DNA of 64,000 nucleotides, taken from assembly GCF_054482525.1 (NCBI RefSeq), contig NZ_CM137006.1; one strand, given 5' to 3'. Below, in pieces: positions 5,441-7,405 of this stretch. Under the pieces are notes generated by a model, which was given only the letters and a program-made list of their open reading frames with translations, searched no databases and was not told the origin of the DNA. Position 1 is the stretch's first letter; each line of letters begins with the position of its first letter. The translations under genes were made by a program, and so were the position numbers.

Positions 5441-7405
5441 GTGAGCATGGATATAAGCGATTTTTATCAGACATTTTTTGATGAAGCGTACGAACTGTTG
5501 GCTGACATGGAGCAGCATCTGCTGGTTTTGCAGCCGGAAGCGCCAGATGCCGAACAATTGAATGCCATCTTTCGGGCTGCCCACTCGATCAAAGGAGGGG
5601 CAGGAACCTTTGGCTTCAGCGTTTTGCAGGAAACCACGCATCTGATGGAAAACCTGCTCGACGAAGCCAGACGAGGTGAGATGCAACTCAACACCGACAT
5701 TATCAATCTGTTTTTGGAAACGAAGGACATCATGCAAGAACAGCTCGACGCTTATAAACAGTCGCAAGAGCCGGATGCCGCCAGCTTCGATTATATCTGC
5801 CAGGCCTTGCGTCAACTGGCATTAGAAGCGAAAGACGAAACGCCATCCGCAGTGACCCGATTAAGTGTGGTTGCCAAAAGTGAACCGCAAGATGAGCAGA
5901 GTCGCAGTCAGTCGCCGCGACGAATTATCCTTTCGAGCCTGAAGGCCGGGGAAGTCGACCTGCTGGAAGAAGAGCTGGGGCATCTGACAACGTTAACCGA
6001 CGTGGTGAAAGGGGCGGATTCTCTCTCGGCAATATTACCGGGCGACATCGCCGAAGATGACATCACAGCGGTACTCTGTTTTGTGATTGAAGCCGATCAG
6101 ATTACCTTTGAAACAGTAGAAGTCTCGCCCAAAATATCCACCCCACCAGTGCTTAAACTGGCAGCCGAACAAGCGCCAACCGGTCGCGTGGAGCGGGAAA
6201 AAACGACGCGCAGTAGTGAATCCACCAGCATCCGTGTAGCGGTAGAAAAGGTTGATCAATTAATTAACCTCGTCGGCGAGCTGGTCATCACCCAGTCCAT
6301 GCTTGCCCAGCGTTCCAGCGAACTGGACCCGGTTAATCATGGTGATTTGATTACCAGCATGGGGCAGTTACAACGTAACGCTCGTGATTTGCAGGAATCA
6401 GTGATGTCGATTCGCATGATGCCGATGGAATATGTCTTTAGCCGTTATCCCCGGCTGGTGCGTGATCTGGCGGGAAAACTCGGCAAGCAGGTAGAACTGA
6501 CGCTGGTGGGCAGTTCTACTGAACTCGACAAGAGCCTGATAGAACGCATTATCGACCCGCTGACCCACCTGGTACGCAATAGCCTCGATCACGGTATTGA
6601 ACTGCCAGAAAAACGGCTCGCCGCAGGTAAAAACAGCGTAGGAAATTTAATTCTTTCTGCCGAACATCAGGGCGGCAACATTTGCATTGAAGTGACCGAC
6701 GATGGTGCGGGGCTAAACCGTGAGCGAATTCTGGCAAAAGCGGCCTCGCAAGGTCTGACCGTCAGCGAAAACATGAGCGACGACGAAGTCGCGATGCTGA
6801 TATTTGCCCCTGGCTTCTCCACGGCGGAGCAGGTCACCGACGTCTCCGGGCGCGGCGTCGGCATGGACGTCGTTAAACGTAATATCCAGGAGATGGGCGG
6901 TCATGTCGAAATCCAGTCGAAGCAGGGTACTGGCACTACGATCCGCATTTTACTGCCGCTGACGCTGGCCATCCTCGACGGCATGTCCGTACGCGTTGCG
7001 GATGAAGTTTTCATTCTGCCGCTGAATGCTGTCATGGAATCACTGCAACCCCGTGAAGCCGATCTGCATCCACTGGCCGGCGGCGAGCGGGTGCTGGAAG
7101 TGCGGGGTGAATATCTGCCCATCGTCGAACTGTGGAAAGTGTTCAACGTCGCGGGCGCGAAAACCGAAGCTACTCAGGGAATTGTGGTGATCTTACAAAG
7201 TGGCGGTCGCCGCTACGCCTTGCTGGTGGATCAATTAATTGGTCAACACCAGGTTGTGGTTAAAAACCTTGAAAGTAACTATCGCAAAGTCCCCGGCATT
7301 TCTGCTGCGACCATTCTTGGCGACGGCAGCGTGGCACTGATTGTTGATGTCTCCGCCTTGCAGGCGATAAACCGCGAACAACGTATGGCGAACACCGCCG
7401 CCTGA
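5441..7405 (+). CDS. cheA: chemotaxis histidine kinase CheA (long form, GTG start)
   Basis: ORF 5387..7405; the known CheA N-terminus [12 protein letters not shown] begins at GTG 5441 giving 654 aa; an in-frame ATG at 5732 corresponds to the CheA-short start. Confidence 0.93.

Follow-up and report, generated by a model that had tools for sequence, protein, structure and literature searches.

Is cheA at this locus read from one start codon or from two, and what in the sequence would tell the second apart from any other in-frame ATG? Our reading, which we hold at a probability of roughly 93%, is that the ATG at 5732-5734 on the plus strand is the internal start codon of E. coli cheA, in frame with the full-length gene, at which translation of the short isoform, CheA-S, begins. 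The short-CheA start is already known and is annotated in the K-12 reference genome; the site has little weight as a discovery and is useful as a calibration case. What is new here is minor: a map of silent-site constraint in cheA, the finding that Shine-Dalgarno (SD) strength does not single out Met98, and the lineage-specific nature of the AAGGA motif upstream of it.

The locus and the full-length start

The window, by which we mean the whole 64,000-nucleotide stretch analyzed here (RefSeq assembly GCF_054482525.1, contig NZ_CM137006.1), is Escherichia coli DNA. Over bases 5300-7500, three complete genomes match it at 100% identity, and most of the other complete E. coli genomes at 95-99%. 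Among 5426 complete E. coli genomes, some 46-48 lack any cheA match, and two matches are on plasmid-classed records. The gene (5441..7405, plus strand, as annotated by RefSeq/PGAP in one of the genomes that match 5300-7500 at 100%) sits within the flhDC-motAB-cheAW-tar-tap-cheRBYZ cluster, where RefSeq places motB (4510-5436) upstream and cheW (7426-7929) downstream.

The window is the same as strain 19KM1776 but for four SNPs up to position 40,923 and one insertion. An IS1397 copy (IS3-family, about 1.43 kb, 40924-42354) between lpxM and pykA, with orfA carrying HTH domains (40965-41495) and orfB an rve integrase core (41600-42322), is absent from that otherwise 99.99% identical strain, and its flanks, GCCGGATGAGGCGTTT and GTTTTCGCCGCATCCGGC, look like two halves of a REP palindromic unit. 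The offset relative to 19KM1776 shifts by 7 bp at about 52.5-54.4 kb, which points to a small indel; in this interval, from yebE (51763-52422) to ptrB (54401-56461), the annotation of the reference strain has an IS200/IS605-family ISEc46 tnpA and a frameshifted tnpB/InsQ. At the Rfam gathering threshold the window also contains C0465 (7949-8026, minus strand, between cheW and tar), the small RNA MicL (21285-21592, plus strand, at the 3' end of cutC) and two RNAs that overlap in antisense, SraC/RyeA (59995-60139, minus) and SdsR/RyeB (60036-60135, plus), all of which are expected in E. coli.

Full-length cheA opens with GTG at 5441-5443 (plus strand), the first codon of a 654-codon reading frame that ends at 7405. 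The earlier note had placed the start of the long form at this GTG, in agreement with the PGAP and K-12 annotations, with the numbering of PDB 6s1k, a full-length E. coli CheA to which residues 1-150 align 1:1, and with the presence of an SD sequence, GAGGTGA, at 5430..5436. This SD, reported as the long-cheA ribosome-binding site 'gagguga' of E. coli (McNamara and Wolfe, 1997, cited in PMC8745638), forms a duplex of -7.2 kcal/mol with the anti-SD. It overlaps the motB stop TGA (5434-5436), so that translational coupling to motB may occur. The product, CheA-L (654 aa, 71.4 kDa), has five Pfam domains: Hpt/P1 (residues 8-100), CheY-binding P2 (161-223), dimerization P3 (261-324), HATPase P4 (372-508) and CheW-like P5 (514-640). 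The phospho-acceptor His48 (codon CAC, 5582..5584, plus strand), whose column is invariant His across 115 homologues, belongs to CheA-L only.

The start at codon 98 and its K-12 counterpart

The ATG at 5732-5734 is codon 98 of cheA (5441 + 291 = 5732), in the context ETKDIMQEQ. The earlier note had equated it with the known start of short CheA, and the K-12 annotation supports this directly: NC_000913.3 has two cheA (b1888) CDSs, 1973360..1975324 (654 aa) and 1973360..1975033 (557 aa), which have their stop in common and whose starts are 291 nt, or 97 codons, apart, the second at the homologous ATG. The alignment offset, an error in which was named as grounds for rejecting the match, is correct in both the 1:1 alignment with PDB 6s1k and the K-12 CDS pair. 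Published accounts agree, in that short CheA starts at Met-98 and is missing the first 97 residues (PMC7750401), and it is treated as a standard example of a nested isoform (PMC12350097). In the window, the CDS of CheA-S runs in-frame within cheA to the common stop (5732..7405, plus strand; 557 aa, 60.4 kDa). It lacks the phospho-accepting part of P1, as had been proposed, since almost the whole Pfam Hpt domain lies upstream of Met98, as does His48.

The codon, its frame, the motif before it, the match to the annotated K-12 site and the constraint on its surroundings across species are all observed. Ribosomes very likely start at 5732 in this strain too, judging from the site's nucleotides, which are identical to those of K-12. 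PGAP annotation of this strain and of near-identical relatives lists the long CDS only, and the nested isoform is thereby silently lost outside K-12. CheA-S has reportedly been known since 1980, and its start is said to have been mapped in 1991, in work attributed to Smith and Parkinson and to Kofoid and Parkinson, respectively. Among ribosome-profiling sources, a Ribo-RET preprint does not mention cheA and so offers no support for the site, and Salmonella riboproteogenomics supplements in text form are without a cheA entry.

Shine-Dalgarno context of the internal ATGs

The SD-like sequence of the internal start, GAAGGA, lies at 5722..5727 on the plus strand, with AAGGA at -9..-5, 4 nt from the ATG, and pairs with the 3' end of 16S rRNA at -5.4 kcal/mol. 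The same 'gaagga' is reported as the ribosome-binding site of short cheA in E. coli (McNamara and Wolfe, 1997, cited in PMC8745638). Its strength can be judged against 58 annotated genes of the window and 484 internal in-frame ATGs, for which the median pairing energies are -5.85 kcal/mol at annotated starts and -1.7 kcal/mol at internal ATGs. Met98 falls within the range of annotated starts and looks like a start, though only moderately. Pairing of -5.4 kcal/mol or better is found at 40 of the 484 internal ATGs (8.3%). At that rate, the 16 internal in-frame ATGs of cheA should include about 1.3 contexts as good as that of Met98 by chance, and ATG98 with its SD-like motif is, taken alone, not more than chance. 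The aligned spacing of 1 nt is seen in 2 of the 38 SD-bearing annotated starts of the window, which cluster at 3-4 nt.

The result for Met81 makes the same point. Its ATG (5681-5683) is preceded directly by GAGGTGAG (5673-5680), pairs at -6.5 kcal/mol, more strongly than Met98, has an aligned spacing of 3 nt that is typical among annotated starts of the window, and lies in weakly folding RNA (-7.4 kcal/mol). From SD strength alone, therefore, Met98 would not be chosen. The earlier note had proposed looking for a ribosome-binding site upstream of 5732; one is indeed present, but it is modest and close, and does not single out Met98 relative to Met81. These features could mean that the internal start in use is, or includes, Met81, in which case a 574-aa protein would replace or accompany the 557-aa one. 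Both the K-12 annotation and the literature, however, put the start of the short form at codon 98, and one or two SD-like contexts are expected by chance among the 16 internal ATGs; the comparative data, given below, also go against Met81.

The modest SD at ATG98 is also the one point in favor of a different account, in which codon 98 is an ordinary Met codon and the short protein comes either from an internal promoter with a shorter transcript or from proteolysis of CheA-L; nothing else in the sequence favors the ordinary-Met reading. Against it, neither a sigma-70-like promoter nor a terminator was found in 5300-5800, and published papers describe the short form as the product of an alternative in-frame translation start.

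The 33 nt ending with ATG98 have a GC content of 36%, against 53% for the gene, which places them among the lowest 6% of positions. Predicted mRNA accessibility does not discriminate: the probability of being unpaired at Met98, 0.45, is matched or exceeded at 34% of positions (gene background 0.41 +/- 0.09). RNAalifold gave 0 consensus pairs over 39 diverse sequences, the E. coli segment folds no more stably than its shuffles (z = +0.45), and Rfam has no family at the site.

Silent-site constraint upstream of codon 98

In species-representative genomes, a scan found cheA at 80 loci of Enterobacterales that range from Citrobacter to Xenorhabdus, with 62-96% protein identity; counts below are on 81 sequences. 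ATG98 is invariant in 81/81, although amino acid conservation at residues 93-100 is partly built in, since one of the six search peptides, ETKDIMQE, contains Met98. The 13 loci without the exact peptide still have ATG at the aligned codon 98, and silent sites are untouched by the search. For each column, silent-site diversity was taken as the diversity of codons among those sequences whose residue there is the consensus one, expressed relative to the average for that residue over the whole gene.

By this measure, codons 88-97 (ATC AAT CTG TTT TTG GAA ACG AAG GAC ATC; 5702..5731, plus strand), an AT-rich and unstructured stretch, form the silent-site minimum of cheA. They have the least diversity in the gene, ranking 1-2 among 437-549 segments at segment sizes of 6-12 codons, and they rank first after filtering at <95%, <90% and <85% protein identity. 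The permutation P for a gene-wide minimum this low is <=0.0002. The sole comparable dip is at codons 1-8, the initiation region of cheA itself, and codons 88-97 are comparable or lower. The consensus of the block and the following codons is ATC AAC CTG TTT TTG GAA ACN AAA GAT ATT ATG CAG GAA CAG, in which F91 is TTT and E93 is GAA in 81/81 sequences each, and L92 is the rare codon TTG in 68/81. Within E. coli, the 61-nt segment around the internal start is identical in 5369/5378 genomes, a figure that is descriptive only; the control segment 5830-5890 is not a fair one for this purpose because it holds this strain's private G132D allele.

The region upstream of Met81 is quite different. Codons 71-80 have average silent-site diversity (rank 217-370 of about 470), the SD-like codons R78-G79-E80 vary freely between genera, and position 81 is Leu or Ile in 4/81 Enterobacterales, with Leu also in roughly half of the outgroups. 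The SD-like context of Met81 is probably a product of chance, given its lack of conservation across genera and the unconstrained silent sites upstream of it. We therefore reject Met81 as the start on the grounds of annotation, literature and missing conservation, despite its better SD, and consider it very improbable that the start in use is or includes this codon; a minor third isoform may nonetheless arise from it.

What is beyond chance at ATG98 is its identity with the annotated K-12 site, its invariance in 81/81 sequences and the synonymous minimum immediately upstream. The comparative data do single out codon 98 among the in-frame ATGs, and its assignment as the start draws on earlier experimental knowledge as well as on conservation. 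An unstructured, AT-rich stretch with constrained silent sites that ends at an invariant ATG has the look expected of an internal ribosome-entry region. We infer that the block at 5702-5731 is where ribosomes land for the internal start, and that this conserved block, rather than the SD alone, carries the essential determinants of initiation. In this gene, the true internal start stands out clearly by conservation at silent sites, a practical criterion for nested in-frame starts elsewhere.

Codon 98 outside the enteric bacteria

Searching proteins with P1 (residues 1-140) turned up 115 homologues that cover position 98. At P1 identities of at least 70%, every intact homologue has Met98; five sequences with Cys98 have a scrambled, frameshift-like segment there. 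At 60-70% identity (Achromobacter, Pandoraea, Azotobacter, Alcanivorax and others), Leu98 is found in 34/40, so that Met is not required by the fold. A Met-to-Leu change tolerated by the domain and never seen in the enterics fits the retention of Met98 as a start codon.

The CheA proteins of a Halomonas/Vreelandella group have Ile-Met aligned with Met98 (TFLEAKDIMHEQLD), unlike the Leu of other non-enterics; the members are L085 (Vreelandella/Halomonas aquamarina), P0074, P0076, P0079, P0081, P0082 and P0085. In several other non-enteric CheA proteins, Met comes one residue earlier (KDML).

Two of the comparative results bear on whether codon 98 is an ordinary Met codon after all: the silent-site constraint peaks exactly upstream of ATG98, and Met98 is invariant in enterics though relatives tolerate Leu. 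With these set beside the promoter search and the published descriptions, an ordinary Met codon, with the short protein supplied by another transcript or by proteolysis, is scarcely credible.

The AAGGA motif of E. coli

AAGGA occurs in 5/81 genes and is, for the most part, peculiar to E. coli. It is created by the AAG codon for K95, which is AAA in 76/81 Enterobacterales; the resulting AAAGAT pairs at an unremarkable -3.3 kcal/mol. Thus, E. coli has the stronger SD (-5.4 vs. -3.3 kcal/mol). Five silent positions in 5702-5749 set E. coli apart from the Enterobacterales consensus: N89 (AAT), K95 (AAG), D96 (GAC), I97 (ATC) and Q99 (CAA). Salmonella enterica reads AAAGATATT-ATG, and AAAGATATT is found in most genera as well.

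Both forms of CheA have been reported in E. coli, in S. typhimurium and in enterobacteria generally, and papers that cite McNamara and Wolfe (1997) credit it with the co-expression of CheA-L and CheA-S in Salmonella, Serratia and Enterobacter. That Salmonella is reported to make both forms without AAGGA means that a strong SD is not needed. The contrast between AAGGA and AAAGAT is a minor clue, and a testable one, to what sets the isoform ratio.

Possible roles of the upstream block

The constraint on 5702-5731 could have a cause other than ribosome entry, such as small RNA or protein binding or an RNase site, in which case its adjacency to ATG98 would be coincidental or regulatory and the block would not be the core initiation signal. 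The near-invariance of its silent sites, including the TTG codon of L92, in spite of the weak AAAGAT of most genera, lends this some appeal, as does the reported change in the long:short ratio of CheA with growth, from 4:1 to 1:1. It is nevertheless a decidedly unlikely account: the site has no Rfam family and no conserved structure, constraint of similar size occurs at the 5' end of cheA, a known initiation region, and the Salmonella gene, reported to yield both forms, has the consensus block without AAGGA, which fits the block being the initiation region itself.

A related and more speculative idea is that 5702-5731 is a dedicated element, either an SD-independent internal ribosome-entry site or enhancer, or the site of a trans-acting regulator that sets a growth-phase-dependent ratio of CheA-L to CheA-S, and that the silent AAA-to-AAG change is a secondary strengthening of the site in E. 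coli. We regard this as unlikely, and retain the simpler proposal of a landing region for ribosomes that start at ATG98.

Proposed mechanism and function of CheA-S

Initiation at codon 98 and the role of CheA-S are taken from the literature, and the following scheme is built on them. Ribosomes would enter the motA-motB-cheA-cheW mRNA at two sites. Entry at GTG 5441, directed by the GAGGTGA that lies over the motB stop, would yield CheA-L (654 aa). Independent entry at the AUG of codon 98, after GAAGGA and the AT-rich unstructured stretch, would yield CheA-S (557 aa, about 60 kDa).

Lacking residues 1-97, His48 among them, CheA-S cannot be phosphorylated, and its homodimers are described as inactive because the histidine phosphorylation site is absent. 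It keeps P2-P5, all downstream of residue 160, and so should still dimerize, carry the kinase domain and join receptor arrays. According to its title, one study finds that CheA-S can restore kinase activity to kinase-deficient mutants (Wolfe and Stewart, 1993), and the title of another states that CheA-S is not essential for chemotaxis (Sanatinia et al., 1995).

The P1 remnant exposed in CheA-S would bind the phosphatase CheZ through L123 and L126, bringing CheZ to the receptor cluster. The role of the two leucines in CheZ binding is reported in PMC7750401, which cites Cantwell (2003) and Hao (2009), and both residues are present in the window (Leu123 to Leu126, codons 5807..5818, plus strand). 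The literature has CheA-S recruit CheZ to receptor patches and enhance dephosphorylation of CheY-P. The gene of this partner, cheZ, is annotated at 13728..14372 on the plus strand; residues 95-100 of its product are DDWFAD, with the aromatic pair W97-F98 present.

Comparison with known systems

The closest known counterpart is the internal start of E. coli K-12 cheA (b1888, NP_416402.2), with which the site shares codon 98, GAAGGA, the stop codon and a 557-aa product. The window is identical in nucleotides to K-12 MG1655 through cheA codons 80-110; the whole gene is 98.3% identical and five residues differ (D17Y, G132D, R166S, N259S and K484E). Four of these changes are carried by CheA-S as well; the start site and L123/L126 are unaffected. 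Two of the five lie in P1, D17Y in its helix bundle and G132D at its end, close to the CheZ-binding leucines.

Other Enterobacteriaceae (Salmonella, Serratia and Enterobacter) have ATG at the aligned codon, and the upstream block ATCAACCTGTTTTTGGAAACNAAAGATATT, as E. coli does. The difference lies in the codons just before the ATG, which are AAA GAT ATT in most genera, Salmonella included, and AAG GAC ATC in E. coli.

More distant parallels are infB, with its products IF2-alpha and IF2-beta, clpB and mrcB. In these, too, tandem in-frame starts on one mRNA give two proteins, of which the shorter is without an N-terminal functional module, although the genes and their functions are unrelated to cheA.
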